Positions 20,936 to 63,600 of a DNA stretch of 64,000 nt are shown in pieces. The stretch covers positions 46,934,001 to 46,998,000 of the forward strand of contig NC_073385.1 of the NCBI RefSeq assembly GCF_028641065.1. Reading direction: 5' to 3'. How positions within the stretch are numbered: the stretch's first letter is position 1; the number at the start of each line of letters is the position of its first letter. This stretch comes from Leucoraja erinacea (lineage: Eukaryota). The position numbers were made by a program, and so were the translations under genes. Below the pieces are notes generated by a model that was not told the origin of the DNA, did not search any database, and worked only from the letters and a program-made list of their open reading frames with translations.

Positions 20936-23445
20936 AGCACAAAGTAGTGATTGTGGGAGATTTCAACTTTCCACAAATAGACTGGGAAACACATTCGGTA
21001 AATGGGCTGGATGGTTTGGAGTTTGTAAAATGTGTGCAGGATAGTTTTTTTGCAGCAATACATAGAGGTACCTACTAGAGGAGGGGCAGTGTTAGACCTC
21101 CTGTTAAGAAATGAGACGGGACAGGTGGCGGAGGTATGCGTTGGGGAGCACTTCGGGTCCAGTGATCACAATACCATTAGTTTCAATATAATTATGGAGA
21201 GGGTCCGAACTGGACCTAGGGTTGAGATATTTGATTGGAGAAAGGCTAACTTTGATGAGATGCGAAATGATTTAAAAGGAGTGAACTGGGACATATTGTT
21301 TTATGGGAAGGATGTAGAAGAGAAATGGAGGCCATTTAAAGGGGAAATTTTAAGAGTACAGAATCTTTATGTTCCTGTTCGGTTGAAAGGAAACAGTAAA
21401 AAGTGGAAAGAGCCCTGGTTTCCAAGGGAAATTGGACATCTTGTTTGGAAAAAGAGGGAGATCGACAATAATTATAGGCAGCATGAAGTAAATGAGGTGC
21501 TTGAGGAGTATAAGGAATGTAAAAAGAATCTTAAGAAAGAAATTAGAAAAGCTAAAAGAAGACATGAGGTTGCTTTGGCAAGTAAGGTGAAAGTAAATCC
21601 AAAGGGTTTCTACAGCTATATTAATAGCAAAAGGATAACGAGGGATAAAATTGGTCCATTGGAGAGACAGAGTGGACAGCCATCTGCAGAGCCAAAAGAG
21701 ATGGGGGAGATATTGAACAATTTATTTTCGTCGGTATTCACCAAGGAGAAGGATATTGAATTATGTGAGGTAATGGAAACTAGTAGAGTAGCTATGGATA
21801 CTGGGTTACTACAGCATATTAATAGCAAAAGGTTTAAAAGGGATAAAATTGGTCCCTAGGGATTATACAGCTTGTGGACAGCCTTCTGCAGTGGTGGCCA
21901 AAAGAGATGGAAAAGATACTTAGAGACAATTTATTTAAGTCGGTATTCACCAAGGAGAAGGATATTGATTAGGTGAGTCAATGGAAATTAGTAGAGTAGA
22001 GGATTGGCGTACTACTAATGTTGTTGAATTGTTTAAAAAGGATTCTAAGAGTAAACCTAGCAAAATTGACGAGGTTAGTTTGACTTCAGTGTTGTCTATA
22101 GTTAATTTAAAGATACTTAGAGATAAATATATAAGCGTCTGGATAAACGGGTTGATTAAGAAGGTCAGCATGGATTTGTGGGTAAGGTCATGTTTGACTA
22201 GTCTTCAAGATTTTTTGAACAGGTTACTAGGGAAAATGGGAGGGTAAAGCAGTGGATGGGTCTATATGGTGGAGTAAGGCCTTTGACAAGGTTCCTCATG
22301 GAAGGTTGGTTAAGAAGGTTCAACTGTTGGGTATAAATGGAGGAATCGCATGATGGATTCAACAGTCGCGGATTGGGAGAAGCCAGAGGGTAATGGTGGA
22401 TGGTTGTTTGTCGGGTTGGAGGCAGGTGACTAATGGGGTGCCTCAGGGATCGGTGTTGGGTCCTTTGTTGTATGTCATGTACATCAATGATCTGGATGAA
22501 GGTGTGGAAAATTGGATTAGTAAGTATGCAGATGATACCAAGATAGGGGGTGTTGTGGATAATGAAGAGGATTTCCAAAGTCTACAGAGTGATTTAGGCC
22601 ATTTGGAAGAATGGGCTGAAAGATGGCAGATGGAGTTTAATGCTGATAAATGTGAGGTGCTACACCTTGGCAGGACAAATCAAAATAGGACGTACATGGT
22701 AAATGGTAGGGAATTGAAGAATACAGTTGAACAGAGGGATCTGGGAATAACCGTGCATAGTTCCTTGAAGGTGGAATCTCATATAGATAGGGTGGTAAAG
22801 AAAGCTTTTGGTATACTAGCCTTTATAAATCAGAGCGTTGAGTATAGAAGCTGGGATGTAATGTTAAAATTGTACAAGGCATTGGTGAGACCAAATCTGG
22901 AGTATGGTGTACAATTTTGGTCGCCCAATTATAGGAAGGATGTCAACAAAATAGAGAGAGTACAGAGGAGATTTACTAGAATGTTGCCTGGGTTTCAACA
23001 ACTAAGTTACAGAGAAAGGATGAATAAGTTAGGTCTTTATTCTCTGAAGTGCAGAAGGTTAAGGGGGGGACTTGATAGAGGTCTTTAAAATGATGAGAGG
23101 GATAGACAGAGTTGATGTGGATCAGCTTTTCTCTTTGAGAATAGGGAAGATTCAAACAATAGGACATGACTTCAGAATTAAGGGACAGAAGTTTAGGGGG
23201 AACATGAGGGGGCACTTCTTTACTCAGAGAGTGGTAGCGGTGTGGAATGAGCTTCCAGTGGAAGTGGTGGAGGCAGGTTTGTTGGTATTTAAAAATAAAT
23301 TGGATAGGCATATGGATGAGAAGGGAATGGAGGATTATGGTATGAGTGCAGGCAGGTGGGACTAAGGGAAAAAAGTTGTTCGGCACGGACTTGTAGGGCC
23401 GAGATGGCCTGTTTCCGTGCTGTAATTGTTATATGGTTATATGGT
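20936..23445 (+). mobile_element. CR1 LINE ORF2, 5'-truncated and frameshifted
   Basis: APE motifs VIVGDFN, PTRGGAVLDLLL, EHFGSSDH; RT motifs GVPQGSVLGPLL and YADD; (atatggtt)n tail. Confidence 0.92.
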
Positions 23446-23544
23446 TATCCTTCGAGATCTTTATCATTAGCTCATGTTCCCAATCTTCTCTTAGTGCTTC
23501 TGTTGAGGGTAATTCTCTATTTAATATATTATTATAAAAGTCTT

Positions 23545-24047
23545 TATAGGGAGGATGTCAACAAAATAGAGAGAGTACAGAGGAGATTTACTAGAATGTT
23601 GCCTGGGTTTCAGCAACTAAGTTACAGAGAAAGGTTGAACAAGTTAGGGCTTTATTCTTTGGAGTGCAGAAGGTTAAGGGGGGACTTGATAGAGGTTTTT
23701 AAAATGATGAGAGGGATAGACAGAGTTGACGTGGAAAAGCTTTCCCCACTGAGAGTAGGGAAGATTCAAACATGACATGAGAATTAAGGGACTGAAGTTT
23801 AGGGGTAACATGAGGGGGAACTTCTTTACTCAGAGAGTGGTAGCTGTGTGGAATGAGCTTCCAGTGAAGGTGGTGGAGGCAGGTTCATTTTTATCATTTA
23901 AAAATAAATTGAATAGTTATATGGATGGGAAGGGAATGGAGGGTTATGGTCTGAGCGCAGGTATATGGGACTAGGGGAGATTATGTGTTCGGCATGGACT
24001 AGAAGGGTCGAGATGGCCTGTTTCCGTGCTGTAATTGTTATATGGTT
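23545..24047 (+). mobile_element. Second CR1 3' end, closely similar to 22930-23440
   Basis: YREDVNKIERVQRRFTRMLPG..; same tail. Confidence 0.85.
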
Positions 24048-24078: not shown

Positions 24079-26266
24079 TCATAACATCAAGACATAACCT
24101 CTGACACCCTCACTAATCAAGTATGATATTAGTTTTTGTGAATCAGCCTTAATATTCATTGCTTCTTCTAAAGGGTCTAAAAATATAGTTTGAAATCTAT
24201 GTGTATATTTCTTCATAAAGTCACATATCTGTATATATTTAAAATATTGATTATCCTTCAGTTTAAATTTTAATTGGTGAAATGATAACAGTTTGCCCAA
24301 TTCATACATATTCCCTACTTTCCTAATCCCCAGTCTATCCCATTGTTGATATGTTTTGTCGATGAGAGATGGTTTGAATGCGGGGTTGTTCAATAGTGGG
24401 GTTAGTACTGATAGATTATTTAATTTCAAGGATACTTTTATTTGTTTCCAAATTCTTATTGTATTGTGAATAATTGGGTTTTTCTTATATATTATACTAT
24501 TCAATTTTATCGGTGAGAGCAAGATCGTTCCTATATCGTGCGGATAGCACTCCTCTTTCTCCATTCTTATCCACTCCAACTGCTGAGTGGAACTATCCAA
24601 CCAGTACATTATGTTCTTAATATGCACTGCCCAGTAGTAATACATATAGTTAGGTAATGATAAACCCCCAACTTCTTTAGGTTTACACAAATGCTTTCGT
24701 TGAATTCTGTTTGCTCTGTAATCCCATTTAAATTTAGTGATAGTAGAATCTAGTTTTTTGAAAAAATATTTTGGAATATATATTGGGATCGTTTGAAACA
24801 AATATATTAATTGTGGTAAGAAGGTCATTTTTATAGCGTTAATTCTACCCTTCAATGAGAGCGGGAGCGTTTTCCAAAATGCAATCATATCATTCAGTTT
24901 ATTTAATAGTGGCATAAAATTGGCACTAAATAATGATTTGTGTCTTCTCGTAATTGGAATACCCAGATACTTGAATTTTTCTGTTGCAATTTTGAAGGGG
25001 AATTTTAGTAAATGTCTCGAATCCTGTGGTTTTAAAGACATAATTTCGCTTTTATTCCAATTTATTCTATATCCTGAAAAAGAGCCAAATTCCTCAATTA
25101 GTGTTAATAATAATTATTAATTTGGGTATACTCGTTTGTGTATTAGTAATATATAAAAGGATATCATCAGCGTATAATGAAATTTTATTCTTTGAGTCCT
25201 TAGTGTTATATCCGTGAATATTTGGGTGATTTCTAATCCTTTCGGCCAGCGGTTCTATCATAAGGGCAAATAGCAATGGTGATAAGGCACAACCTTGCCT
25301 ATTACCCCTTGATAAGTAAAATTTTGGAGATAGCATATTGGTAGTTAATATTCTTGCCGTAGGTCTATCGTAAAGTAGTTTAACCCATCTAATAAAATTC
25401 TCTCCCGTATTAAATTTTTGGAGTACCTTGTATAAATACTGATCAAATGCCTTCTCTGCATCCAGCGTAACAACTGAAATATCTTCATTGTCCTCATTGT
25501 GAGAGTACATTATATTGAAAAGCCTTCTCAAATTATTAAATGATTGTCTTTTTTAAATCCCGTTTGAGTATAGAATCTTTGCTAAAATCTGATCCGTATT
25601 TTTGATCCGTTCAACTATTTATTAAGCAATTGTTGCTTCTGCTTGTTTATTTTCGGTATAAGCCTGCATGTATAAATATAATTACTTTTTTAGTCCTCTA
25701 GCTCCTAGAATCAATTTTTTGCTAAAATTTTCTGATCCGTATTTAAAAGTGAAATAGCTCTATAAGAACCCGGTTCAACTAAATCTTTATCTTTTTTTGG
25801 TATAAGCATTATATGTGTGCGTTGAATCTCCAAAAAGGTTTTATACCCGGCATTCCCTCAATTTTAAGTATAAAAGTCAATGGTGAATGATCCGCAGTTC
25901 TCTTTTATTTTCCTTATTTTGAAAACTTTGATAAGAGATTATGATGCCGCGAATATATGCCTTGAAGGTTTCCCATAATAGCGGTGCAGAAATACCCGGC
26001 GTGTCATTTATTTCGAAAAAAAATTTTGTTTGTTCTTTTATATACTCATAGCCCTGCGGGTTATTTAATATGTGTGCATTGAATCTCCAAAAAGGTTTTA
26101 TACCCGGCATTCCCTCAATTTTAAGTATAAAAGTCAATGGTGAATGATCAGAAATAATACTATTATGATATGATGGTTTATTCGTATACGGGATTAATTT
26201 TGTGTCCAATAAGAAATAGTCAATTCGTGAATAAGTTTTATGAACTGATGAGTAAAATGAATATTC
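24079..26266 (-). mobile_element. L1-clade LINE ORF2 fragment (endonuclease end and RT), internally rearranged
   Basis: SRIDYFL..IISDHSPL; LDAEKAFD; RGNRQGCALSPLLFALMIEPLA; SLYADDILLY; LPLSLKGRINAIKM; GGLSLPN. Confidence 0.88.
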
Positions 26267-26807
26267 ACTACCACTTGTGAAGGTTATTTTGTCACCTCTC
26301 TTTGCTGATTACAGTCTATGGGTCAGCAAGTCAATAATCCAGTTGGAGAAGTAAGGTGCTGAGTTTGGGACTCGATTGTATAATTATCGAAAATATGATA
26401 GGTGTGATAGTTCAGATCAAATAAACAGTAACGGCTTATGATTACCATGTGGAGCTTTGAGCATCAACAGTTCACATTGCTAGGGTGCAATATTCAAATA
26501 AAAGTTGAGTTCAAGTTCAAGTGAGTTTATTGTCATGTGTCCCTGATAGGACAATGAAATTCTTGCTTTGCTTCAGCACAACAGAACATAATAGGCATTG
26601 ACCACAAAACAGATCAGTGTGTCCATATACCATTAATAAACACATGAATAAATAAACGGATAAAGTGCAAATAACAGATAATGGGCTATTAATGTTCAGA
26701 GTTTTGTCCAAGCCAAGTTTAATAGCCTGATGGCTGTGTGGAAGTAGCAACATTTAATTAACATTTAAATAAAACTCTTTATATGCCATGTTTTTTTTTG
26801 CAGAACA

Positions 26808-27491: not shown

Positions 27492-29018
27492 ATGGGATCA
27501 GATCCTTTCCGGAATGGATCTCTGACTGGTAACAGCTCCAACCAACAGGAAGGGCACAGCCTTTTGAAAGTAGTATCAATTGCCACTATTACTGCTATAG
27601 TAAGCTTCATAACAATAATAGGCAATATTTTGGTAATTGTGTCATTTAAAGTGAACAGCCAGCTAAAAACTGTGAACAATTATTACCTGTTAAGTTTGGC
27701 CTGTGCTGATCTCATCATAGGAGTGTTTACAATGAACCTCTACGCTTCTTATATATTGATGGGTCACTGGTCACTGGGAAATTTGACGTGTGATTTGTGG
27801 CTTGCACTGGATTATGTGGCCAGTAATGCCTCCGTCATGAATTTGCTCCTTATTAGCTTCGATCGGTATTTCTCAGTCACACGGCCATTAACCTACAGGG
27901 CTAAACGAACCCCGAAAAGGGCTGGTATCATGATTGGTCTGGCATGGTTAATATCCTTTATATTGTGGGCACCTGCTATTTTATGCTGGCAATACCTAGT
28001 TGGAAAAAGAACTGTCCCTTCAAATGAATGTCAGATACAATTTTTGTCTGAACCTATTATTACATTTGGTACTGCGATAGCCGCTTTCTACGTCCCAGTG
28101 TCGGTGATGACGATACTGTACTATCGCATCTATAAAGAGACTGAAAGACGCACTAAGGACCTGGCGGAACTGCAAGCATCGAATCTCGCCTCGGAAGATG
28201 AAGTTCACGTTTCCAAAATGATTCGATCTACATCTTGCTTCGGATGTGTAAGCCACAAACTTTCACGCAGGGAAAGGTCCCAGGTATCGTGGTCTTCAAA
28301 CAGAAGCACAACAGTAACCCTAAGATCCACACAGGCCAAAAATGTCACAGACGAATGGTTAGAAAGCGACAACAAAGACTCCTTTGCAAATTACCCCATG
28401 TCTGAAGAAGATGGAAGGCTCACTCCAAAATCAACCTCTTCAGTGACTCAAGGGGAAGAACAGATTGACGAGTATACTGGGGAGGATGACGCCAATGTTT
28501 CCTTGGAAGAAGAGGCTTCGGCAATAAATAATTATGAAAATCAAAATCATTTGGCGATTCCTGTAAAAAAACAGAAGGATAAAAATTACATTTCTTACAA
28601 GGGTCATAAATTAGCTGTCAAAAATGGCAGTTCCTCGTCAACCTCAGACACGAGTAATGGGTGCACCGGACTTAAAGGAACACCCCCTGAACCAGAAGTT
28701 CCATGTATGAGAAATATGGATCAAAACCTGAGGCTGCAGATCACCAAAAGAAAACGGCTGGTTTTGATAAAGGAAAAAAAGGCAGCGCAGACACTTAGTG
28801 CCATTCTACTGGCGTTCATCATTACCTGGACACCGTACAATATTATGGTGTTAGTCTCGACGTTTTGCTCGGACTGCATCCCACAATCACTGTGGCATTT
28901 GGGATACTGGTTGTGTTACGTTAACAGCACAGTCAACCCCATGTGCTATGCTTTGTGCAACAAAACCTTCCGCACCACCTTCAAAATGTTGTTACTATTT
29001 CAATGGAAGCGGAAATGA
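27492..29018 (+). CDS. CHRM5: Muscarinic acetylcholine receptor M5 (508 aa, single coding exon)
   Basis: 7-TM GPCR with [88 protein letters not shown]; M5-diagnostic residues; splice acceptor ttttcttctacag at 27374; syntenic between AVEN and EMC7. Confidence 0.97.
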
Positions 29019-34752: not shown

Positions 34753-35884
34753 CACATGTACTGCACGGATGTGCACATTTGTGACTTCCATGTTTGACAA
34801 CTGTGGAAGTCCTAGACTTGATGTCATTTAAACAAGCAAATGCTGGTGGCTCAATTAAGAACTTGATATGCAAGGTTATGGGGAGAAGGCAGGAGAATGG
34901 GGTTGAGAGGGATAGCTAGATCAGCCATGATGAAATGGCGAAGTAGACTCGGTGGGACAAATAGCCTAATTTGGCTCCAATGACTTCGGAATTTATGAGA
35001 ACTGTGGTATTTGACAACAAAATGGGAACAACTGAAGCAGATACTCTTTAGCCAAATCACAAATTTTATAACCAAAGTATTTATTTTATTGGTAAAGAAA
35101 AGTAAATAATTAGATTTTATCTACATTTTAAACCAAATCTATGTTGCATATAAAATACTTCCTCTGAGAATAATCAAATTTATAGTACAGGCTATAAATT
35201 GAGGACAATTTTTTTGTCAATCTAAAGAGGACAAAGGGTCCATATGATATTATATAGGCTATCTTGAATTTATTGTTTTGATTTGCTTTATCTACACCTC
35301 ACAATGTCAGTGGGTTTCTTGATCAGATTTTTTTAGTTGGCAGATTATTTGTCCTGACAAGAGATATTCTCCTTGAACCCAGCATCAATATTGTATACTC
35401 GATTGATCTGCAGATAAGATCTATTTATTCAGCTTCATACACCAGCCCAAAGTCAGTCTGAATACATTTTCTCAGATATTTAATTCACTGAACAAATGAC
35501 AGCACGATGGCAAATTTTGAATATTTCTACATTATAATTAAATTTCAAGCATTAACACCCATCATACCAAAAATATCTTACTTCCATCTGGAAGAGATTT
35601 TGGCACAAATCTCAAAGGGAAATATTGGCATTCCAAACAACTGAGACACCCAACATTAATCATGACTTGAGTATTTAACAATTTTTCCACATAACATTTT
35701 GTTCATGCAGACTGTACCAAGTAGTACAACAAATAACAAATTTGTTCATTTGCATCAGATATGTTCCTGTAACTGCACTTTCTGGTAAATAAGTCAAGAA
35801 CGTATATAAGCATAAAAATTTAAAGAAATATTTGAACTTACAAATAAACTATTAGATTTATTTCCAGTTCTTTTTGCGCCATTA

Positions 35885-36579
35885 TTATAACTCATCACGT
35901 AAGGTTTTGTGGCATTCGGTTACCTTACTATTAGGTTTTATCATCATCCATGCATACTTGCACATATTTTCTTTATTACAATCATTTTGCCAATAAACAA
36001 CATTTCTTCTGTTCAGATTAGCTCCAGCACAGGCATTATACCACCATCCACCACCTGGGACCCCATTAAGTTCCAATTTGGCACAGTTCTGGGAATAGTT
36101 GTCATTATCACTATCCTTTGTGGTGAATTTTTGGTTGTCATGAACATAAGCCTCTGTATCTTTTGTCAAAGCATCAGTTGCAGTTCCATGATAAAGACCA
36201 AGTCTAATTTTATATCTAGATTCTTCATTTTCAATGAGAAAGGGGTCATATTCTCCCCACTTCATATCACCATTAATGTTGATTAGTTTAATTCCCAACT
36301 TATATTCATTCGGTTTACTTGTGATTCTATGCATGAACTCATTGCCCAACCAGTGATCACCATTAACAAAGCCAAATCCTTGCTTGTAGTCCTGCCATGT
36401 TCTATCAAAGTCCAAGGAGCTGTTAACAGTGATGTGCTGGATTATTGTCCATCCACCTTCTGCACTTTGCATGTCGCAGAAAACAACTATAAGACCCTTC
36501 ATCAATTGGATGACATACAGACCATCTTTAGCCTTGCCCTCTGACTGCTGAAAAATTTCATAACAGTTACTCAGAAAAC
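35885..36579 (-). CDS. Fibrinogen C-terminal domain (FReD) protein, exon 2, ends ...KTLRDEL*
   Basis: Acceptor ttttgcag|GT; GFLSNCYEIFQ..DGLYVI..VFCDM..GGWTIIQ..DFDRTWQDYKQGFG..HWLGNE..KFTTKDSDND..NCA..GGWWYNACAGANLN; intact ORF, TAA TAA stop. Confidence 0.93.
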
Positions 36580-36829
36580 CTGCAAAACATAAAGGAAGAA
36601 TGAATACAATATTACAACCAGTTTAGACATTTTACATTTTTGCATCTAGCTAAAACTCATTGGAAGAAAAATTATCAAGTTCACTGTGAATCAAAAGGTC
36701 AAGTATGCAATCCAATGTCAATTTGCTTTTAATTTTTATCTAATGGCCAATGTTTGTGGTTTAATAAATGTTAAATTAATATTACTAATATTGCAACAGC
36801 AGTATTTTGTTATGTCATATTTTACCACT

Positions 36830-37100
36830 GTAAAATCAAGAACCAGAGGTCGTAGGTTTAAAATAAGGGGGAAAAGATTTAATAGAAACCTGAGGGGTAA
36901 TCTTTTCACACAGAGGGTGGTGGGTGGATGGAACGAGCAGGTACTATCGCAACATTTAAGAAGCATTTTGACAGGTACATGGATACGACAGGTTTAGAGG
37001 GATATGGGCAAATGCAGGCAAGTGGGACTAGTGGGGAGGGGACATTGGTCGGTGTGGGCAAGTTGGGCCGAAGGGCCGGTTTCCACACTGTATGACTATG
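36830..37100 (+). mobile_element. CR1 3' fragment in the FReD-gene intron
   Basis: KSRTRGRRFKIRGKRFNRNLRGNLFTQRVVGGWNE. Confidence 0.75.
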
Positions 37101-37204
37101 TGTAATAGGGATACAGTGATTATAGAGATCAATATAAGGATTGTCACATCTATAATTATCGATTCACAAGGAAGTACACAATATCCAAACTAATTGAAAC
37201 TCAC

Positions 37205-37358
37205 CATCTTGCCATCTCAAATTGATTATATGAGCATAATCTCCTGGGGTTAGAAGATGTGCATTCTTCAGTTCTACTGACGATTCAGTGCTTATCAAAA
37301 TGGTACATTTCAGCAACATTAGAAGGGTAACGCTGAAAAGGTTCCTCAAATTCATCAT
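37205..37358 (-). CDS. FReD protein exon 1 (signal peptide)
   Basis: MMNLRNLFSVTLLMLLKCTILISTESSVELKNAHLLTPGDYAHIINLRWQDG; hydrophobic N-terminus; donor G|gtgagt, phase 1, matches exon 2; alternative in-frame ATG at 37379; about 282 aa in total. Confidence 0.8.
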
Positions 37359-37643
37359 TACTGTTGTGTTGAAATTCATCAAGAAAATTAAAAGTACAAT
37401 AAAAGTTACATAAATCTTGTGTCAAAAATATGGATTCAATTATTTCCTGTTTATGCATCTTTCTTGGCCCACATAACACTCTCATTGTAAATTTGAGCAG
37501 ACTGGCTGGCAACGCAAAGGTAACAGCTTCAGCCTCATCACCAGATGGTGACAAATGGAGTCTAGAAGCTCGCCGTCGGTCCAAATTAACTGCTACAGGT
37601 ATGATGAGTTCCTTTTGTTCTGGCAAGCGTTCTATGCAAAATG

Positions 37644-39254: not shown

Positions 39255-40900
39255 TCTTGGTAGACATAGAAACAGGTGAATTGATCATGGGGAACAAGGA
39301 CATGGCAGACCAATTGAATAATTACTTTGGTTCTGTCTTCACTAAGGAAGACATAAATAACCTGCTGGAAATAGCAGGGGACCGGGGGTCAAATGAGATG
39401 GAGGAACTGAGTGAGATCCAGGGTAGCCGGGAAGTGGTGTTAGGTAAATCGAATGGATTAAAGGCCGATAAATCCCTAGGGCCAGATAGGCTGCATCCCA
39501 GAGTACTTAAGGAAGTAACCCCAGAAATATGATAATTTAGTGATAATTTTTCAAAACTCTTTAGATTCTGGAGTAGTTCCTGAGGATTGGAGGGTAGCTG
39601 ATGTAACCCCACTTTTTAAAAAGGGAGGAAGCGAGAAAACGGGGAATTACAGACCAGTTAGTCTAACATCGGTGGTGGGGAAACTGCTAGAATCAGTTAT
39701 TAAAGATGGGATAGCAGCACATTTGGAAAGTGGTGAAATCATTGGACAAAGTCAGCATGGATTTATGAAAGGTAAATCATGTCTGACGAATCTTATAGAA
39801 TTTTTCGAGGATGTAATTAGTAGAGTGGGTAAGGGAGAACCAGTGGATGTGTTATATCTGGACTTTCAGAAGGCTTTCAACAAGGTCCCACATAAGAGAT
39901 TAGTATACAAACTTAAAGCACACGGCATTGGGGGTTCAGTGTTGATGTGGATAGAGAACTGGCTGGCAGACAGGAAGCAAAGGGTAGGAGTAAACGGGTC
40001 CTTTTCATAATGGCAGGCAGTGACTAGTGGAGTACCGCATGGCTCAGTGCTGGGACCCCAGCTATTTACAATATATATTAATGATTTGGACGAGGGAATT
40101 GAATGCAACATCTCCAAGTTTGCGGATGACACGAAGTTGGGGGGCAGTGTTAGCTGTGAGGAGGATGCTAGGAGGCTGCAAGGTGACTTGGATGGGCTGG
40201 GTGAGTGGGCCAATGCATGGCAGATGCAGTATAATGTGGATAAATGTGAAGAAAGCGAATGGTATGTTAGCATTCATAGCAAAAGGATTTGAGTATAGGA
40301 GCAGGGAGGTTCTACTGCAGTTGTACAGGGTCTTGGTGAGACCACACCTGGAGTATTGCGTACAGTTTTGGTCTCCTAATCTGAGGAAAGACATTCTTGC
40401 TATAGAGGGAGTACAGAGAAGGTTCACCAGACTGATTCCTGGGATGTCAGGACTTTCATATGAAGAAAGACTGGATAGACTCGGTTTGTACTCGCTAGAA
40501 TGTTAGAAGATTGAGGGGGGATCTTATAGAAACTTACAAAATTCTTAAGAGGTTCGACAGGCTCGATGCAGGAAGATTGTTCCCGATGTTGGGGAAGTCC
40601 AGAACAAGGGGTCACAGTTTAAGGATAAGGGGGAAATCTTTTAGGACTGAGATCAGGAAAACATTTTTCACAGAGAGGTGAATCTCTGGAATTCTCTGCC
40701 ACAGAAGGTAGTTGAGGCCAGTTCATTGGCTATATTTAAGAGGGAGTTAGATGTGGCCCTTGTGGCTGGAGGGATCAGGGGGTATGGAGAGAAGGCAGGT
40801 ACGGGCTACTGAGTTGGATGATCAGCCATGATCATATTGAATGGCGGTGCAAGCTCGAAGGGCCGAATGGCCTACTCCTGCACCTATGTTCTATGTTTCT
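39255..40900 (+). mobile_element. CR1 LINE ORF2 3' half with stops and deletions
   Basis: GPDRLHPRVLKE, PEDWRVADVTPLFKKG, NYRPVSLTS, YLDFQKAF, GVPHGSVLGP, FADD; (atgtttct) tail. Confidence 0.92.
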
Positions 40901-45090: not shown

Positions 45091-46039
45091 AGACTTACAA
45101 GTGATACATCCAATCTTTTTCTTACTTCCCCACATTCCATGTGCACCCATGTCCCACCAGCCTAGAGCCTTGTTCCTATCCCACCACTGTATGCTCCTCT
45201 TCAGCCACCTAGTCCCTTATTTGATGTTATCTCTTTTTGTCTTCTTCCACTTATATCCCTCCCTCTGGCCTTACATTTCACTTTCCTTCTCAGACACCCC
45301 TTTGTCTCCCAGTCACCCTTTGCCACTATCTGCCAATCAATATCTCCTCCTATCACTTGCCAGGCTTTGTCCCAGCCCATACCTTTCTTTTCCAGATTTC
45401 TTACCCCCATACTCCATCAGTTGAAGAAGGGTTCCGACCTGATGCTGCCTTCCTCAGGAAGTGTGTGGGTTTTTTTTTTACCACTATTGTACAGCTTCTT
45501 GAACATCAACTTCTCCATTTCTGTGATTAACTGAGCACATGTTGTAATCACTTATATTTATATTTAATATACACTTTTATTATAACAAACTCATCACACA
45601 ATTTGGTAAACTGCATCCTTGTCATAGAAAACAAAGCCACAGTGCCACATAGAGGTGTAAGTGGTACTATAACAGATATAAATATCACAGTGCTGGAACT
45701 CCACCTACTGATATTAATTACATGGGGTCAATGACAGATAAAAAGGTATGGAAAAATTTAAGGTACATTAAAAGCCAAGCGTACAAAATAAATGCACAAT
45801 CTTTTCATAACGATTCACTAATGCAAATGCATAATCACACTGGATGATGTTGACAATTCACAATCAAATTAAAAGATTTTAGTAACTCAATGAAATAATT
45901 TAGCAAATAAGACAAATCTCACCACCAAAAAGCATAGCTTTCTATGCACATTTTGGCAAAATATCTCCAGCTAAATGCACTGCAGTGACTTTCCTGAAAC
46001 CTGCACTTCCTGGATTTATGACGTCCTCTCAGGTAACAG

Positions 46040-46250
46040 TTTAGCGGATGCAGAAACGACAACCAAGTTTTCTGAACCGAGTTATTTACACAATCGCTCC
46101 TTGGCAAACAGATCTGATCATAACGGTGGTCAGCAAAACAGCTGGCGCAAAGGCAAAACCGCGAGAAAACAGCAACCCCTCCCGAGTCATGTGGCCACGG
46201 CTTCTGAACGCAGGGTTCAATATCTGCATGCCACAGCAGGCGCCACTACA
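46040..46250 (-). repeat. 3' LTR of the Gypsy element
   Basis: Direct repeat of 50082-50288; termini TGTAG...CTAAA. Confidence 0.9.
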
Positions 46251-49200
46251 TGGTCCAGAATCCGCGGTACGGAAATGCACGGGTAACCAGATGGTTCGAC
46301 TGGAACGCGTAGTCCGATGTCACGGGGCGAGCATAAAATTCGGGGCCAGCAAAACAGAACCGGAGGGACGCGACAAACGCGAACGAGGGATGGGCGTAAC
46401 AGAGGGAACCGGTGAAACATAACCGGGGCTAACAGTTGCAGAGGTCGGCAAAACGGCCGGTGGACGACCTCTACGCCGCGGAGTGGCCACAGCCACCGGG
46501 CTATCCTCATCGATGTAGGCTGGCTTAAGGCGGCTGACGGAGACGAACTCCTCCCTGCCAACCATGTCCAACATGAACGTTGACGTACCGGTCTCTAGCA
46601 CCTTGTACGGACCTTCGTGCACCCGCTGTAATGGCGAGCGATGAGCATCCCTATGAAGGAAAACATAAGCACAATCCCGAAACATAGTAGGCACATGCAC
46701 CGCGGACGACCCGTGTCGGGAAGTGGGAACCGGGATGAACCCGCGCGCCCGCTCGCGAAGGACAGCTAGCACCGCTGAAACCGGGACCTCCTGATCCCGG
46801 GTGGCGGGCAGAAATCCTCAGGTACCTGCAGAACCGAGCCATAAACCAGTTCGGCCGAGGAGGTGTCAAGGTCTTCCTAAGGCGTAGTTCTGATGCCTAG
46901 GAGAACCCAGGGCAACTGGTCAACCCAATCAGGGTCGGTGAGCCGAGCCTTCAACGCCAACTTAAGGCGTCTGTGAAACCGCTCGACTAAACCGTTCGAC
47001 TCCGGATGATACGCGGTTGCCTGGTGCAGCTTCGCGCCGTACAGCTGCGCCATACCACACCACAGGGAGGACGTGAACTGGGCCCCACGATCGGTAGTAA
47101 TATATGAAGGGACCCTGAAACGAGCGATCCAATTGGAGACAATAGCGCGGGCACAAGCCTCAGCGGAGGTATCAGTTAATGGTATTGCCTCCGCCCACCT
47201 GGTGAACCTATCCACGATAATTAGTAAGTGAGTGGCCCCACGTGAACACGGGAAGGGACCCACCAGGTCACCATGGATGTGCAGGAACCTGCCGTCTGGA
47301 ACAGCAAAATCCTCCACGGGCGGGCGCACATGCCTCTGCACCTTGGAAGTCTGACAGGGGATAAAAGCGCGGGCCCATGCTGCGACCTGTTTTCGTAACC
47401 CGTGCCAGACGAACTTGGAAGTAACCAGGGAAGAGGTGGCGCGGATAGACGGGTGAGGCGCCACAAGGCACCTCAGTAAGCTTGAGACCCGATTCAGCAT
47501 TGCGGTAATCCTCCATGCCTGCATCGGCCCGTTGAGCCGCTGCCAGCTCCACATAATCCACACCTAGGTTTAAAACGGAAACCTCAGGGACCGCCGGACG
47601 GGATCCCCGCCACATGCCGAATGTGAGACGTGAACTCATATATGTAGGCGAGGTGCCGCTGTTGCCTGGCAGACCAGGCGTCGGTCACCTTATTTAAAGC
47701 GAACGTGAGCGGCTTGTGGTCCGTGAATGTGGAAAAACACGCAGCCCTCTAGGAAATAACGGAAATGACGGATCTCTAGGTAAAGCGCGAGGAGCTCCCG
47801 ATCGAAAGCGCTGTACTTGATCTCCAGGGTCCGCTGCTATCTGCTGAAAAACGCCAGCGGCAGCCAGCGGCTACCTACCTGCTGATCGAGGGCAGCACCC
47901 ACCATGACGTCCGACGCGTCCACGGTGAGAGCTGTGAGAGCCGTTGCCTTAGCGTGTACCAGCATGGTGGCATTGGCCAGCATGGTCTTAGCCCCCTCAA
48001 AAGCTATCCCTGCCTCCTTGGACCAAACAAGGTCCTTAGGCTTGCCTGCAAGACATTAGAACAATGGCCGCATGATGGCGGCCGCTGACGGGACGAATCG
48101 GTGGTAGAAATTGACCATTCTGATGAATTCCTGCAGGCCCTTGACAGATAGTGGCCTCGGGAAGCGACGGATTGCGTTGACCTTCTCAGGCAGCGGTTGT
48201 GCGCCATGGCAGGTTATCCAATGACCTAAAAAGGAAATGGAGCGCAATCCGAACTGGCACTTCGCGGGGTTGATCACCAACCAGTGCTTACGCAATCGTT
48301 CGAGGAGCAGGCAGCGGTGTCTAACGTGTTCAGCCTGCGAGCTGCTGGCCACCAGAATATCACCAAGATAGATGAATATGAACGGCAAATCCCACCCGAC
48401 CTGATCCATTAGCCTTCGGAACGCTTGAGCGGCATTATTCAGACCAAAAGGCATTCTTAGCCATTTGAAAAGGCCGAAAGGGGTGATGGTGGCCGTCTTA
48501 GGGACGTCGTTGGGATGGGCCAGGATCCGATTATACCCGCGTACCAGGTCGACCTTCGAGAAGAAGGCGGCGCCCTCCGAATGAGCCAAGAAATCTTGGA
48601 TGTTCAGGATTGGGTACCGATCTGCTGTGGTTACCGCGTTCAAATGCCTGTAATCACCGCAAGGTCTCCATCCCCCGGACGCTTTGGGCACCATATGCAG
48701 AGGGGAAGCCCAAGAGCTATCCGACCGCCGGACCATCCCCATGTCTTCAATAAGCTGGAACTCGTCTCGTGCGATGCTCAGTTTATCGGGTGGGAGGTGG
48801 CGCACGCGGGCGTGAACCGGTGGGCCCTTGGTGGGAATGTGGCGGACCACGCCATGACGGGGCAAGGCCCCGTCGAACCAGGGCGTGAGCAACCCTGGGA
48901 ATTCAGTGAGAAGGCCTACGAAAGGTTGCTGGATCTCAGCTACCTCGTCAAGTTGCTGCTGGGGCGTGAACGGATTACGTGGCTTGGCAGGGCACAGGTC
49001 TGACAATGGAACCATTCACCCGCCTCGCACATCAACTAGCAGGGAAAATGCGCGCAAGAAATCGGCCCCCAATATCGGCTGGGCGACATCAGCAACGGTG
49101 AACTTCCACCTATATGGGTGGGAGTCTAAATTTAAGTCCAGGGTCTGCACACCATATGTTTGAATGTCGCTCCCGTTAACGGTCGAGAGGACGGGTCCTA

Positions 49201-50081
49201 CCTTACCGACGCGGATATCTCGGGCGGTCGGTGGCAGGATGCTGGCTAGGGCACTGGAGTCCACCAGGAAACGGTGGCCGGAATGGCGATCACGGACGTA
49301 GAGGCGTTCGATCGGGCCGATGCATTACCCTGAAACGAGCAGGGGCTTCGACATCTTCGGCCTTCCACACCGTAACGGAGATGGTAGTAGCACCAACGCC
49401 GTCGGCTGTACACCTCCGGCTGCGGCGATGCCTTTTCGGCGCTGGGCGGATCCTGACCTTCGTCCCGATGTTGCCTCGGTTGAACCCACGCCGTGGCAGT
49501 GGGACGGGTGAAAGAACAAACGTCCCACCGTCTGTTGGTCCACAGCTCGTCGGCTATCTCCGTGAGGGGATCGCTGAAATCGGCCCGGCGAGCATCAAAC
49601 GGACCTCGTCTGGCATCTGCTCCAAGAACGCCTGTTCGCAAAGCAGACATGGGTGATGCCCGTACATCAGGGCCAGCATCTTCGCCATGATGGTGGATGG
49701 ATGCCAATTGCTGACACTGTCCATGTGCAGGATCTTCGCCACCCTGTCTCTATGGCTGAGACCGAAGGTATGTAACAGCAGGGCCTTCAAACCTTTGTAC
49801 TTTGTGATCGTCGGCGGGTCTCTGATATTTGGCAACAGCCTCGAGGCACAGCCCTGTGGCAGAGCTCCCACCACATGAAATTACATCGTGTCATCCGCTA
49901 TTATTCGATGCAGATGGAATTGTGCCTCTACGTGGGCGAACCACATTTGAGGTTGATCCAGCCAAAAGGAAGGTAGCTTGAAGCCCGGTGAGCCCTGCCT
50001 CGTGCTGGCCGATTCTGCAGGGACGTAGTACTCCTGCATGATCTCCTGTCTGATGACGGCTAGACAGGTCGGGGTCACCAA

Positions 50082-50288
50082 TTTAGCGGATGCAGACGAC
50101 AACCAAGTTTTCTGAACTGATTTATTTACAATCGCTCCTTGGCAAACAGGTCTCTGCAAACACGTCTGATCACAACGGTGGTCAGCAAAACAACTGTGGC
50201 GCAAAAACAGTAACCCCTCCCGAGTCACGTGACCACGGCTTCCGAACGCCGGGTTCAATATCTGCATGTGCCAGCAGGCGCCGCTACA
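50082..50288 (-). repeat. 5' LTR of the Gypsy element
   Basis: Direct repeat of 46040-46250, followed by the tRNA-Trp PBS. Confidence 0.9.
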
Positions 50289-56881: not shown

Positions 56882-57028
56882 CTACCTCCTTTTTACCGCT
56901 CCACTCTTGCCAGCCTTATTGCCACTTCCAGATTTAGATGATTTGGAAGTGAAAAGACGAGTCATAAACTCAGAAACATCCGGCAACTCATGATTCGGGT
57001 TCAACATGTTCATGGACTGCTCCATCTC
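56882..57028 (-). CDS. EMC7: ER membrane protein complex subunit 7, exon 5
   Basis: tttcag|[48 protein letters not shown] (TAG). Confidence 0.95.
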
Positions 57029-57999
57029 CTGAAATAGAAAATTACATCACATGCTGTAATAATGCTTCATTAAGTACAAGTAAACACATTCAATAAGTGT
57101 TTAAGTACGCTGAATACGAGAGTTGAGTTTGGGACAGCAACAAGCACACCTCTGTCTCAAGATAACACAAATATTATGAAATATTATTAAGGTGCTTTCA
57201 GAGACAAATGCAAACTAATAACAGAGATAGCAGGTAACCTTCTATTACTCCCAAGAACCGGCATACAATTTACAGAAATAAAGTACACTTTCATGTTTAT
57301 TGGTTCATTTAACAATGCTTCATTTTTGTCCTTATACAGGACATTAACCATTAACCACAAAATTGTATGTTCTGATTCAACAAGGACAGATAGTTACCAT
57401 GAGACCAAACTGGCAGCACAAAACACATTAAATAGTCAAATTAGAATTTAAACTAAAGCTAGGTGTGCAAGGAGCAAATGTTCAAACGGATCTTAAAAAC
57501 TCAACCTTGAACAACCAACCTCAATAAAGTCGATATACCAACATTTTAATGTCTATTTGTATAAATCAACAATTATTCAGGTTTAACGCTCAAACTTTAA
57601 GAATCTCGTAGCCAAGAAGTTTGGGCATCAGTAAGCATATTAGTCAAGCCTTTCAACAATACATTACAAAATAAACAAATTGGGGAAAAATAATATATTC
57701 ATTTTTTCAAATTTACCCTTTTGCTGAATAACACGAATTGTACAATTAAACCCGATTATACATGGATCTATAAATTAGTTCTTGGAAAATCACGTGAATT
57801 TATCAACTAAATTAGCTAACAAAGGATTTTCTGATGAACATCGCCGTGAATCCATTATTTCATATACACTTCAATACTTCACTCAATTTGCATACCAATT
57901 ATTCACCATAATCCGTCAAGTGTCCAGTTCTTTGCAATTTATCATTGACACATACTTTATGGAATCCTGTACTAACCAGTTTTAACTCGGCTTACTCAC

Positions 58000-58080
58000 C
58001 CGTCGCATTTCAGGATCATTAGTGTTAACCACCTTTGGCAACAAGAGGATGATCAACAATGGAAGAACCATCATCATTAC
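58000..58080 (-). CDS. EMC7: EMC7 exon 4 (transmembrane segment)
   Basis: cctcag|[27 protein letters not shown]|gtgagt, 81 nt. Confidence 0.95.
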
Positions 58081-59710
58081 CTGAGGAGGTGCAACAAATA
58101 TATATTTTAAAAGGTTACTATAAACAATGCTGCCATGAGCTTTCAGCACAATGTGAAGGAAATCATCAGGTACAACACTAACATTTAGTTTGAAATAACT
58201 TTATATAACTTTGTAAAAGCCAAGGCAAGCACACTGCAGTAGAAAGATAGAAAAGGAAATTATCAAGGAATAGCATGTGTATAATTTCCCTTTACATTAT
58301 TCTTGTCCTACCAGTTCAACACAAAGTGGCCCTTGCCAAAAATATTCTAGTTGGTTCTTTTGTGCTCTGATCAAAGAAAATATAGGCACTTTCCACACCT
58401 AATCTGAGGAACTTGAAACTATGTGTTTATTTTCATAGGTTTAAGAAAAAAAGAACCCACACACAAGCCACTCTTAAAATAAAACCAACTTGAATCTTAC
58501 CATACAGTTAAGTATGTAAAAAAAAATCAAAACATACAGATAAGTATGTAAAAAAAATCAAAAGCACTTTGCGCTCACATAATTTATAAATCGTTCCCCC
58601 AAAAAATGTAGATAGAAATAGAATTCACTCACATATAATTTGTGTCAAAAATAGTAAATCAAAAGATTTTTTCAACTTTCCTTTCTTGATACGTGTAGAT
58701 TACCTGGCTCAGCCCATCCTCTAGGAACACACTCACCCCCTCCCACTAATTATGCATGGGTCATCTGACTAAGCATATAAAAAATCTACATATCGTGGCA
58801 ATCGGAAATAAAAACAAAAAATGCTGGAAATCCTCTTTCCAATTCGGTTCAAAGGTCTCACACTCAAAACATTAAGTGTTTCCCTTTCTGCTTTGCCTGC
58901 TTCACAAACACTCCTAAGCTTAATACCTGATCTGTAACTGATGGAAGAATTGGGAAGGCAGTCGTGGTACACATAATTGGCTTGTTTTATACAAAAAGTA
59001 GCCTGCAATTGCTTTTGTAGAAAGAGATCTGCTTTATAAATGGACAATTAAACTAGGTATGCACAGATGAACTGCCCCCCCCCCCCGTTATTCTTCCTCA
59101 ATTAGAATACAATTAAGACTTCAAAAAAGTAATTTATTCCAGAACATTTAACACATTCTAAAAATAGTCGCTGTCTAGTATTTCAGAAAAAAACATTTTA
59201 AAATAGTTGGTAGCATCCGTGGAGGGAAATGAACAGGTGACTCTTCGGGTCACGATCCCACTTTAGTCTGAAGGACTTCCTCCAGCAATTTGTTTTTGCT
59301 GCTCAAGATTTCAGAATCTGCAGACTCATATCTCTATCTTAAATTATTCCATTTAAATTATTTTTGACACAGTCTCGGTGTCATTGAAGACAAACTCAAT
59401 TAATTGGTAAAGTAGCAACTTCCCATAAATAGCCCGGAACTAAATGACAGGATACTTTGTTCCAACAATGTTGAGTGAAGCCCAATTATTTGTTGTGTAG
59501 CTTTCCCATCTTTTTCTTGAAAAGTATCCCAAGGTCTTTGTTATCTAACTGGCAAAGCGAAGGATGCTTTGTTAAAGGTCACATGAACAAAATACTCCAC
59601 CTATTTGGGTTTAAAGCCATTTAATAACAGGTAATGCAATCCCAAGTAAAATATGTTGAGTATTTTTTCCTACTGTTAATGTAAAGATTTGCATGATATT
59701 ATTCACTTAC

Positions 59711-59849
59711 CATAGGATTCATGAGGAAGTCTGTCCAACCCCATGTTTCTCGTTTCATAAAGTACGGAGGAGGACCAGAAGATTTGATCTGAATTGGATA
59801 AGGCAGCCTAATGACTTCGGATGCCTTTAAATAATTCACCTGCCTTGCT
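59711..59849 (-). CDS. EMC7: EMC7 exon 3
   Basis: gacag|[46 protein letters not shown]|gtaagt, 139 nt. Confidence 0.95.
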
Positions 59850-60169
59850 CTGTCAAGAAAAACAAATAATAAAATCTACTTTTTGTCTAAAAGGCAGTAA
59901 CTATTTTCTTCACCATTTTAGGAATTGTTAGAATCTTTTAAAATGCTGATTTTACTTATTTCATGTATAATATTGACCACTAAATAGCAATATACCCGGC
60001 AAAGGCTTTGAGCGATTAAAAATAGACTAAATCTCAACTAAACGGTTTGTTTTGGATCTTATGCACTGCCCAGTATCAACAATATAAAATATTAAAAACC
60101 TAACAAAACACATTACGTCATATTGCAATACCAAGGCAATCAAACTTTTATAAGTTGGAGTATTCTTAC

Positions 60170-60289
60170 CTGATTTTACCTTTGGAGGTAATGTCAACTC
60201 TCACAGGTTCAAAACGGTATGCTGGTGAAACAACTTCCACGACATATGATCCAGAAGGGACATCATTCACAGTGAATGTTCCATCTGTT
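60170..60289 (-). CDS. EMC7: EMC7 exon 2
   Basis: tatag|[40 protein letters not shown]|gtaaga, 120 nt. Confidence 0.95.
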
Positions 60290-60409
60290 CTATAAAGCAA
60301 ATTATATTGTATGATATACCTAAATGTATACAATTAAACAGTATAATTTTGTCATGTTCCCAAATGACATTGTAACAAAGAGCAAAATATCTGTTTAATA
60401 TTGAAGCCA

Positions 60410-60760
60410 TGCTTTCCACCAGTGCGACAGAGGTTTACCTGCATCTCTTCCAACCTCATCTATTGCATCCGCTGCTCTAGAAAGCAGCAATTATATCGGT
60501 TGTAGGTTGGGCGATCGTTTCGCCGAACAATGTATACAATGAAACACTTCAATCCCCCTCCCACTCCGTCTCCGACCTCTTGTCCTGGGTCTCCCAATGG
60601 CCACAGCATTGTAACGGAAATTGGAGAACAGCAAAATATCTGTTTAATCTGCATCCTGGGGGCATGAAAACCCAATTTTGTTAGTCCTTGCTGCTCCCTT
60701 CCTCAGTCCCCCTGCTGTCTCCTCCAAGCCTTCGGGAAACATTGTTCTGAAGGGTTTCGG
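60410..60760 (+). mobile_element. Highly decayed Penelope GIY-YIG 3' fragment
   Basis: ttacctgcatctcttccaacctcatctattgcatccgctgctc..ttatatcgg..ttgggcgatcgtttcgccgaaca parallels 20500-20600. Confidence 0.6.
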
Positions 60761-62949
60761 GAACGTTGTTACAATGATAGATATTATTGTTATGAGGGGA
60801 AAAATTGTTTGAAGGGGTGTTCAAAGACTTGTTATGAGGAAATTAAATGGTAAGACTAAAAATGGTAATAAAATAATTCCAACTAAAAAAAAAGACAAGT
60901 CCTCATGGGCTTCACAGGTGGGAGGCAAATATCCTAGAATTCACAATTGTACATATCACTTCACTCTCAGCCCCTTTGTTCATTAACAAGGTTTTTTTTG
61001 TAATCTTAAATAAAAATACACCAAAACAAAATATGAATGTAAAAAAAATTAAGCTCACTCCCAAGAGTTATTCTCTACATTATAGCCCAGAAATAAACAT
61101 CATGAAAAGTACACAAGGGAATTCAAACAAGCAAACAACCTCCAAATCAACGCCACCTGAAGCCAAATTGACACAACAACTGAAGATACAGGGCCTATAT
61201 ATCCCAAGGAATTTTCAACATGCCTCCGGCAACATTTGACACCATGGCTTAAATAATTGTTAGGGCATTGATCAGAAAGATATGCTAAAGGGAAAAGAGA
61301 ACTGTAAAGAGTTAAAGTGGAAATTACAGTCCCCAAGTCAGATGAAGTTATAGACATCAATAGTGTCATATCTGGAGGATTCACAAAATGCCAGGAAAAA
61401 TAGAGCTGATATCTTAGAGGTTTGTAGGAGCAGAAATGACGATTGATGCTACTGGAGGGATTTGAAAACAAATAAACTTATAATCAAGGCGTTGCTAAAC
61501 CAGGAATCAACAGGCAAGTGCGGAAAAAGAGCATGGGATCTGGAGCCATGGTTCCAGTGCTCCCTTTCCACTCATCCAGGCATCGATTCCCACGTTCCTT
61601 TTTGCACTCAGCTAGGCCCTGGTTCCCTTCAGTGTACCTTGATCATTTAAATATTGCCATTACTACATAATTTACTGAAAATGCAAAGTAAAAGTGTGCT
61701 GAGGTATGGTCAGAAATAACATGCAGTCGCCCTGAAAATCTATCATGCTGGATTGTTGGGAGTTTTATTGTAAACGAGAAGCCAGTCAGTAGTGCATTGG
61801 AAAAATCTGGAAGAATTAGAAACAATACAGCCTCAAATGGGAGAAAACTGCCACAATTCAACACAATAGGTTTAGACACATAATTTCATATCAAATTATG
61901 TATCAAATGCACCTTTCCCAACTTTGGTCTCGCAATCACTGTAATTTACGGTAGTTACTTCAGCAAGCAATGTTCTGTCAAAATGGACAGTTTGGTTGCA
62001 ATGAGGAAATCCTTCCAGTGGCTTGGTGGCATCTCATGCTGACCATCCAAGTCCAGGATCTAATTTCTGGTTGTATTGAGTTTCACAAAGGAAGCAATAA
62101 TTAAACTCTGGATTCCACACCCTCGCCAGAGTGATGATCTAGGGGCCCACACCAGTGCAGTGTCTGATGGTAGACCCAGATCCCAATCTCCTGCCTATAG
62201 TTATATAAACAGTATAAATCAGATTATAAGGGCACTATTACATTGCTCTTTGTGGAAGCCTACCCTGGAAAATTTGGCAGCTGTGTTTTCAACACTAACA
62301 CCAAAGTAAAACTACGTAAAAAGGCCATTATGAGTTTCAAAGCTTTGGTATTTATGTCCGAAAATTGATAAACAAATGCAATGGTTTTAATTTACTGAGC
62401 CAGTTAAAGAGGCAAGAGAAACTATAGAAACTCCAAGCAGTACCTCCACCACCATGTTCCACCCGCTGCACAAGCCAGCTGTTTCCCGTTTATGTCAAGC
62501 CCACAACCTTTTAGCCACAGGCAGGTGGAGAGGGCCTAGGGCCCTAACTTTCAGGAATCCTGCTTGGCAGGTTAACCTGCGGCTGAACTGTGGCTCCGAC
62601 CGCCCCCAAACTCTTCTCTCTCCATACTTCCAGCCCCTCAGTCCTGGGGCAGGCTATAACCACAGACGCCATCCCCAACATCCTGGACAAGCCCTCCTCC
62701 CTCCTCCAACTTCCTCCTTTCCCTGGGGGCTACTGATTCATAAATTCTAGGAGCAGAATTAGGCCATTTGGCCCATCAATTCTACTCCGCTACTTTAATC
62801 ATGGCTGGTCTATCTTTCCCTCAACCCCATTCTCCCGTCTTCATCCCACAGCCCCTAACACCTTTACTAATCAAGAATCTGTCAATCTCCGCCTTCAAAA
62901 TATCCATTGACTTGGCCTCCACAGCTGTCTGTGTAATGAACTCCACAGG

Positions 62950-63600
62950 AGTTGAGGAAGCCATTGGGCGCCTCTTCCCCCCCACAAACCCCAAGAAGAT
63001 GGGCCCTGACGCCCACCTCTTCTCATCCCACCCCTCCCTGTACCTCTCCCTGTCCCCGTATCTCTCCCCAGCGGTTACTTGAAAAAGCCGACGTGCTCCT
63101 CTCCCTCCACCAACACCCTGGCCGTGTGGATCCAGTCCTGCGGCTTGATTCCCGGCACGACCGCCCGGCCCTCGATCTTGAACCTCTCCCCGCCGGCGAC
63201 CTCGAACTCGGAACCAGCGCACATCCAGCAGTGAGCCGCCAACAGCAGACACGACAGGAGCTGAGAGCAGCGGCGAAAACCTCCTCGTCCTCGTCCTCGT
63301 CCTCCTCCTGCCGCCGCCGCCATCACGACGCCTCTGCTGAGCAAACGCGCGCAGCCGCACTGTCGCCCTCAACTATGACCCCGACGGCCGTGCGCTCCCG
63401 GGACCAGCTGTCAATCAGCCCGGGGGGCGGGGGCGGGAGATAGTTGAGGAGGAGTCAGGAGTTTTATGAGGAGGTTGCACCGCAGTAGAGGTCACGACAC
63501 GTGACCCGTACTGTTGCCACGCAACGCCTTCTGGAGTACAAGCGTCAGGCAAGCACTTACTATGGCTGCCAGTGCAGCGGGCCCGTCTTCTAGAGTTGCT
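62950..63600. promoter_or_regulatory. CpG island / EMC7 promoter with E-box
   Basis: High CpG density around exon 1; CACGTGAC at 63498-63505. Confidence 0.65.
63079..63323 (-). CDS. EMC7: EMC7 exon 1 (signal peptide)
   Basis: [82 protein letters not shown]; donor AA|gtaacc; five exons total 732 nt = 243 aa plus stop. Confidence 0.94.

Follow-up and report, generated by a model that had tools for sequence, protein, structure and literature searches.

The window analysed here is a stretch of 64,000 nucleotides (64 kb) from the skate Leucoraja erinacea. It contains, on the minus strand, a gene for a protein with a predicted signal peptide, a single fibrinogen-related domain (FReD) and a C-terminal RDEL motif (Table 1). 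The EMC7 stop codon lies 19.5 kb upstream of the ATG of this gene. The muscarinic-type GPCR on the other side is, we assume, CHRM5, and two exons beyond it presumably belong to AVEN, as judged by an SNWDRY motif; the order would then be AVEN–CHRM5–FReD gene–EMC7.

Several other features were seen in the window. A degraded retrocopy resembling ZFP36 has a weak CCCH zinc-finger match (E 0.029) and, in another frame, a LPIFSRIS-like C-terminal motif which we take to be that of the ZFP36 family. The Gypsy-like element has matches to DUF7041, protease, reverse transcriptase and integrase in several frames, and similar segments at its two ends may be LTRs. A long simple-repeat tract contains many runs of N, and the assembly is unreliable there. 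Rfam gave no match in the window.

Table 1. Features of the FReD gene, its neighbours and the rest of the window, in positions of the 64-kb window
Feature	Position	Strand	Evidence or remarks
EMC7, five coding exons	56882..63323	-	tblastn, Pfam; upstream, co-oriented neighbour
Coding exon 1	37205..37358	-	signal peptide (~residues 1-24) and N-terminal segment with conserved N32-x-H-L-L motif
Intron	36580..37204	-	625 nt, GT-AG, phase 1; RefSeq model and assembled record P0381 cross the junction
Coding exon 2	35885..36579	-	entire FReD, tail, RDEL, stop
Fibrinogen_C domain	35942..36568	-	residues 56-264; Pfam
Predicted calcium loop D207-Y213	36095..36115	-	alignment
Remodelled pocket C217-A236	36026..36085	-	five-residue insertion; Ala for His after second Cys
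Tail cysteine C274	35912..35914	-	Cys in tail of 88/90 parsable orthologues
Predicted RDEL ER-retrieval motif	35888..35899	-	C-terminal, flexible tail (pLDDT ~60)
Second in-frame stop	35884-35882	-	directly after first stop
Putative AATAAA polyadenylation-like signal	35857..35862	-	just 3' of stop codons
Single-exon muscarinic-type GPCR	27492..29018	+	Pfam 7tm_1; convergent downstream neighbour
AVEN-looking exons	6381-6629; about 14000-14275	-	Arg/Gly-rich start; no Pfam match
Degraded ZFP36-like retrocopy	11102-11920	-	
Gypsy-like LTR retrotransposon	about 45900-50300	-	between EMC7 and FReD gene
GIY-YIG (Penelope-type) fragment	20250-20807	+	
Broken reverse transcriptase fragment, presumably LINE-like	24082-26308	-	
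Further such fragments	15401-16456; 21029-23775; 39519-40506		
GT/GGGT-rich simple-repeat tract	about 1900-4750		

Gene structure and the encoded protein

The donor at 37205 and the acceptor at 36579 form the only GT..AG pair tested near the junction that yields a 282-aa reading frame with a double stop; the other pairs were rejected, their frames being truncated or skipping conserved residues. RefSeq XP_055496709.1 (P0377) of L. erinacea matches the spliced protein at every residue, and tblastn gives 100% identity over both exons. The junction is also crossed, at 268/269 identity, by an assembled record (P0381, a 1534-bp contig), an indication that the transcript is spliced. Two bases 5' of the first ATG, a T-rich stretch (37361-37400, minus strand) terminates in CAG, suggesting an upstream non-coding exon.

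Beyond its hydrophobic N terminus, the protein carries eight cysteines and two sequons, of which that at N104 is conserved, and it ends in RDEL followed by the two stops. Residues 4–22 have a mean Kyte-Doolittle value of 1.73 (19-residue window), and the structure model has a signal-peptide helix at residues 7–17. Hydropathy predicts this signal peptide and no other transmembrane segment, and 70 of 74 full-length orthologues are hydrophobic at the same place. Pfam finds a single domain, Fibrinogen_C (PF00147; E 5e-47, 161 bits against a cut-off of 22). Splicing, Pfam and the RefSeq identity together confirm the original prediction of an intact frame of about 282 residues, in two coding exons, with a signal peptide, one FReD and a terminal RDEL. 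The predicted lack of a coiled-coil or collagen region likewise held: Pfam has no collagen match in the skate protein, the spacer between signal peptide and domain is some 30 residues long with just one six-residue helix, and neither the structure model nor Pfam gives a coiled coil before the FReD. The spliced protein also matches the PROSITE ER_TARGET pattern, coded as a regular expression.

Taxonomic range and gene neighbourhood

A search with exon 2 returned 225 proteins at E≤1e-20, and the best 100 of the 120 listed have 54–95% identity. Orthologues occur in rays, sharks, bichirs, sturgeon, gar, teleosts, coelacanth, amphibians, lizards, turtles, alligator, birds and lamprey; the zebrafish orthologue is zgc:194887. 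A profile of 21 orthologues, searched against annotated proteins (3249 candidates), gave no mammalian orthologue at E below 1e-84 among the 120 listed of its 251 matches, while mammalian ficolins and a possum protein are present in the same database. Among annotated proteins, therefore, the exon 2 and profile searches bear out the predicted absence from mammals. The matches listed, again annotated proteins, also include no named orthologue from snakes, neobatrachian frogs, caecilians or chimaera. Several losses are therefore possible, and absence, judged as it is on annotated proteins, may extend beyond mammals.

Gene models that join EMC7 to the FReD gene exist in a sea turtle (Caretta, P0394), a bonefish (Albula, P0449) and a skink (Lerista, P0450). 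A real fusion was rejected, since each model has a different junction; the models are instead probably prediction merges that reveal adjacency. The order EMC7–FReD gene is thus shared by a teleost, a lizard and a turtle, and the predicted position beside EMC7 proves to be conserved. EMC7 is a housekeeping neighbour, and nothing ties the two genes functionally. In a Pelodytes model (P0448) the gene is merged with a WAP-domain tail, probably by another prediction merge.

Placement among FReD proteins

In a midpoint-rooted tree of 55 FReD sequences, 13 sequences ending in xDEL form a clade with lamprey (support 100/99), and this clade is sister to faster-evolving, multi-copy FGL1-like paralogues that lack the motif (joint support 100/98). 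The AU test rejects a single clade with FGL1 (p=0.0006) and likewise one with ficolins (p 0.002); the phylogeny called for by the original prediction places the gene in a distinct xDEL clade. Divergence between hornshark and bird is 0.67, against 1.36 between one paralogue of a chimaera and one of a pigeon, and 1.2 for FGL1.

The paralogues, found in sharks, chimaera, gar, coelacanth, lungfish, amphibians and sauropsids, likewise consist of a signal peptide and an FReD only. They share a deleted loop with the skate protein and often its N-x-H motif and late cysteine pair. However, they have only 31–45% identity, occur in several copies per genome, evolve faster and never end in EL (0/44). Many records (P0101-P0106, P0265-P0300 and related) belong to this large, fast-evolving set from non-mammalian vertebrates, all named FGL1-like, and two proteins so named occur in green turtle plasma. 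This paralogue family looks undescribed too. As the original prediction had anticipated, the xDEL proteins are also annotated automatically as FGL1-like; at least two distinct kinds of gene therefore go by the name 'FGL1-like protein'. FGL1 itself (hepassocin) resembles the skate protein in its FReD fold, calcium loop and presence in trout liver, but FGL1 retains the Cys-His pair and the long loop, and the skate protein has no coiled coil. Angiopoietins and ANGPTLs give the best sequence matches among solved structures (E 6e-36), yet they differ from the skate protein, which again lacks a coiled coil. Another FReD gene lost in mammals is the non-mammalian angptl9; the accessible part of the paper describing it makes no mention of EMC7, CHRM5 or zgc:194887 (PMC5237311).

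The chicken gene FGL1L/LOC428073 is flanked by VPS36 and THSD1 on chromosome 1, which is a different neighbourhood, according to the accessible parts of two reports (PMC10976558, PMC4948856). The Swiss-Prot entry O93526 (FGL1L_CHICK, 281 aa), although named for its fibrinogen domain, is labelled cytidine deaminase and carries the corresponding GO terms in the portion seen of a supplement (PMC8084024). Its length is compatible with both the xDEL clade and the paralogues. This label is questionable, and annotation transfer may carry it over to orthologues. Deaminases carry a zinc motif of H-x-E and P-C-x-x-C. Neither element is visible in the skate sequence, in which Pfam, with E allowed up to 0.1, detects no domain other than Fibrinogen_C, and a deaminase identity was rejected; the ESM Atlas returned Fibrinogen_C clusters only.

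Conservation of the C-terminal motif

The ending [KRHNFWY][^P]E[LF], an experimentally derived rule, occurs in 151 of 163 close homologues (fetched proteins with at least 50% identity over at least 180 residues) and in none of 301 FReDs below 50% identity, counts that are not independent because the sequences are related. The predicted conservation of an ER-retrieval tag in orthologues is borne out by this comparison. Among 95 near-full-length matches, drawn from the 120 listed of 225 after 5 partial or lamprey and 20 distant rows were left out, 91 end in xxEL (KDEL 44, RDEL 26, KVEL 8, NDEL 4 and rarer variants). The count of changes on a tree is more telling than these raw numbers. In the 93 EL-ending sequences selected for this count, position -4 has changed at least 16 times, yet only among K, R, H and N, whereas positions -5 and -7 to -12 accept 12–15 residue types. 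On this pattern of substitution the tag is under selection. The tail is 21–27 residues long across close homologues. In birds (P0009, P0016-P0031) the tag has shifted to KVEL, KLEL or KEEL, and the tail mostly has two cysteines (C-P-C).

These endings accord with published motif rules, at least in the part of the source available: K, R, H and N are effective at -4, anything but Pro is accepted at -3, and KVEL and KEEL occur on ER proteins, while NDEL gave no signal with one of three receptors (PMC2140024). The word RDEL is absent from the main text of that paper (PMC2140024).

The motif is missing from 12 of the 163 close homologues, namely three lamprey models and nine others. The motif-less models whose ends were inspected diverge inside or beyond the final conserved strand, suggesting that their ends are alternative or mispredicted. 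A RefSeq isoform X1 from Girardinichthys lacks the motif and its sister isoform ends in KDEL; a hummingbird model flagged as low quality (P0099) also lacks it. In lamprey the orthologue begins with a signal peptide and keeps 68% identity in the P-domain but bears no tag. Most simply, the tag was thus gained on the jawed-vertebrate stem; alternatively, it was lost in lamprey.

A motif of no significance on an ordinary secreted protein of the FGL1-like kind, or on a cytidine deaminase as the label of O93526 would have it, is highly improbable. The database name and the label on this 281-aa entry (PMC8084024 supplement, seen in part) agree with such a reading, but the tag is conserved with constrained substitutions, grouping with FGL1 is rejected, Pfam finds only Fibrinogen_C and no deaminase zinc motif is visible.

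Fold, calcium loop and remodelled pocket

The structure model (mean pLDDT 90, from a 134-row alignment) shows the usual FReD fold of A, B and P subdomains, preceded by an ordered segment, in which residues 28–50 are modelled at pLDDT ~95, and followed by a flexible tail. It aligns with ANGPTL2 over 205 residues (Z 29.7, rmsd 1.5) and is about as similar to tenascins, ficolins and FIBCD1 (Z ~29). Cysteines C57, C86, C217, C235, C252 and C258 are invariant in 21/21 aligned orthologues; the first four form the two canonical FReD pairs, and an additional pair lies downstream of the remodelled pocket. D209 and D211 are also invariant, and their spacing to C217 equals that of D393 and D395 to C401 in FIBCD1. 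A prediction of a homodimer of residues 26–282, run without an alignment, scored 0.05 against a mark of 0.32 and is informative neither way.

In FIBCD1, calcium is bound via D393 and D395, and acetyl groups via Y405, H415, Y431, A432 and W443, as given in the part of the source available (PMC3908420). For the corresponding S1 pocket, the skate protein was aligned in sequence with ficolin-1/2 and a techylectin, rather than superposed residue by residue on FIBCD1. The pocket His is Ala236 in all 21 orthologues, the Tyr-Ala loop is replaced by a 12-column deletion further downstream, and the position of Tyr405 falls inside the insertion. With these residues missing in the alignment, the classical acetyl-lectin site is absent, and the suggestion of a lectin was not upheld for the acetyl-binding type of ficolins and FIBCD1. 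Ficolins, FIBCD1, MFAP4 and tachylectin 5A thus share the fold (Z 28.8–29.4, rmsd 1.4–1.9 Å over ~203 residues) and the calcium aspartates with the skate protein, which differs from them in lacking both the S1 pocket residues and a collagen region.

The P-domain is nevertheless the best conserved part of the protein, with a mean majority fraction of 0.92 against 0.75 in the rest of the domain (70 rows). Its identity is 80% between skate and zebrafish and likewise between skate and bird, and 29 positions are near-invariant and clade-specific. Such conservation points to a fixed binding partner, and is less easily reconciled with an arms race against pathogens than with a self-partner. Since lamprey keeps much of the P-domain without the tag, the conserved surface appears to be older than retrieval and may serve a function independent of the ER.

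One candidate function is that of an ER quality-control lectin, in which the insertion and the extra disulfide loop would have created a new glycan site beside the calcium loop. The calcium aspartates are retained and the P-domain is highly conserved, and FReDs use several alternative sugar sites, among which S3 is mentioned in the accessible part of PMC3908420. However, the S1 pocket lacks its His, its Tyr-Ala loop and its Tyr, and general glycan quality control should be hard to lose in mammals; we regard this function as distinctly unlikely.

Proteomic observations

In the accessible data of a trout study, the orthologue XP_021430114 (P0402, ending in KDEL) is detected in each of 11 livers by 3 unique peptides. 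Its level goes up by 0.71 log2 after Aeromonas infection, and BiP, HYOU1, DNAJB11, calreticulin and complement rise likewise (PMC6167799). We compared its co-variation with six hand-picked ER chaperones and six secreted acute-phase proteins across the 11 fish. Within groups, correlations were -0.12 to 0.44 with the chaperones and 0.13 to 0.76 with the secreted proteins, and the best partner was C4 (r 0.76). As the chaperone correlations are no higher than the secreted ones, the trout data do not favour ER residence; as a test of ER against secreted proteins, co-variation was set aside as not discriminating, although it leans to the secreted set. Green turtle plasma contains four fibrinogen-like rows (248, 304, 346 and 316 aa, pI 6.55–7.94), none of which matches the sea-turtle orthologue (281 aa, pI 5.3–5.4). 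This missing row is weak support for non-secretion.

These data bear on a second candidate function, in which the protein is stored in the ER and released on demand, by calcium depletion, receptor saturation or the acute phase, to act outside the cell as an FReD of innate recognition or signalling. MANF and AGR2 are analogues for such regulated release from an ER store. All solved relatives are extracellular, the lamprey orthologues have no tag, and the trout protein rises with complement and has C4 as its best partner within groups. Some members end in KVEL, KLEL or NDEL, the last being silent with one of three receptors in the accessible part of PMC2140024. Against this, the slow evolution of the clade (0.67 versus 1.36 and 1.2) ill suits a pathogen-facing lectin, the acetyl pocket is lost and, weakly, turtle plasma has no matching row. 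Storage and release is thus a serious competitor but, on balance, unlikely.

A third candidate is a subunit that assembles or retains other FReDs, such as the secreted FGL1-like paralogues or the fibrinogen chains, acting through FReD–FReD contacts or the tail cysteine. It is a special case of the escort or retention explanation set out below, and in this specific form very unlikely. The paralogues are the sister clade, and none is mammalian in the search with a paralogue query; the orthologue is present in trout liver, and residues 37–48 align with the segment that precedes the fibrinogen beta and gamma domains. However, teleosts keep the gene, yet no teleost paralogue is among the matches listed, in a search of limited sensitivity, and the paralogues diverge fast where the xDEL protein evolves slowly.

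A proposed role in the early secretory pathway

The literature searched, whose coverage is incomplete and excludes supplements, holds no description of the function or the ER tag of this gene. Within that literature, FGL1L or 'fibrinogen-like protein 1-like' appears in gene lists only (including a GWAS list), the main texts give no match to zgc:194887 or O93526 (supplements with expression tables being outside this search), and fibrinogen-related or fibrinogen-like domains combined with KDEL or ER retention give no relevant match. On FReD evolution, the angptl paper (PMC5237311) is the only one whose title marks it as relevant. The gene is not mentioned in the main text of PMC13689627, and the literature searched contains no experiment on localisation, secretion, receptor binding or client binding of the protein. 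The gene is therefore annotated already, under an uninformative automatic name, and is nonetheless undescribed in this literature, with its tag unremarked.

The reading that we prefer, tentatively and at a little short of an even chance, is that the skate gene belongs to a conserved vertebrate clade, that of zgc:194887, encoding a soluble FReD of the early secretory pathway that would escort or retain a putative client. Its parts differ in strength. Residence in the ER is predicted with considerable confidence, and retrieval by KDEL receptors, judged from the conservation of the motif and the published motif rules, is very probable. The signal peptide would deliver the protein into the ER lumen, where it is expected, from its computed fold and residues, to fold as a calcium-binding FReD. 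The exposed C-terminal [KRHN]xEL would bind KDEL receptors in the cis-Golgi and so return the protein to the ER. The remodelled surface of the P-domain may then bind a specific ER client, protein or glycan, and let go of it downstream, and the tail cysteine may couple the protein with itself or with some partner.

A factor of this kind, dedicated to escort or retention, would act in the manner of HSP47 or RAP. HSP47/SERPINH1, RAP/LRPAP1 and the egasyn-type carboxylesterases are soluble proteins with KDEL-type tails that escort or retain particular clients, and HSP47 is a serpin, from a family that is mostly secreted. The analogy is functional only, as their folds are unrelated to the FReD. A fuller version of the escort reading, which we hold somewhat more loosely still, is that the protein may be the first ER-resident member of the FReD superfamily, having gained its KDEL-type tail on the jawed-vertebrate stem, acted as a client-specific escort switched by calcium or pH and later been lost in mammals. 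If mammals did lose such an escort, a lost or rerouted secretory client is implied.

To our knowledge, FReD proteins are regarded as extracellular. A conserved FReD that cycles through the ER would, if true, mean that the fold has been reused inside the secretory pathway, and its client, if found, could reveal a secretory step of fish, amphibians and birds that mammals have dropped.
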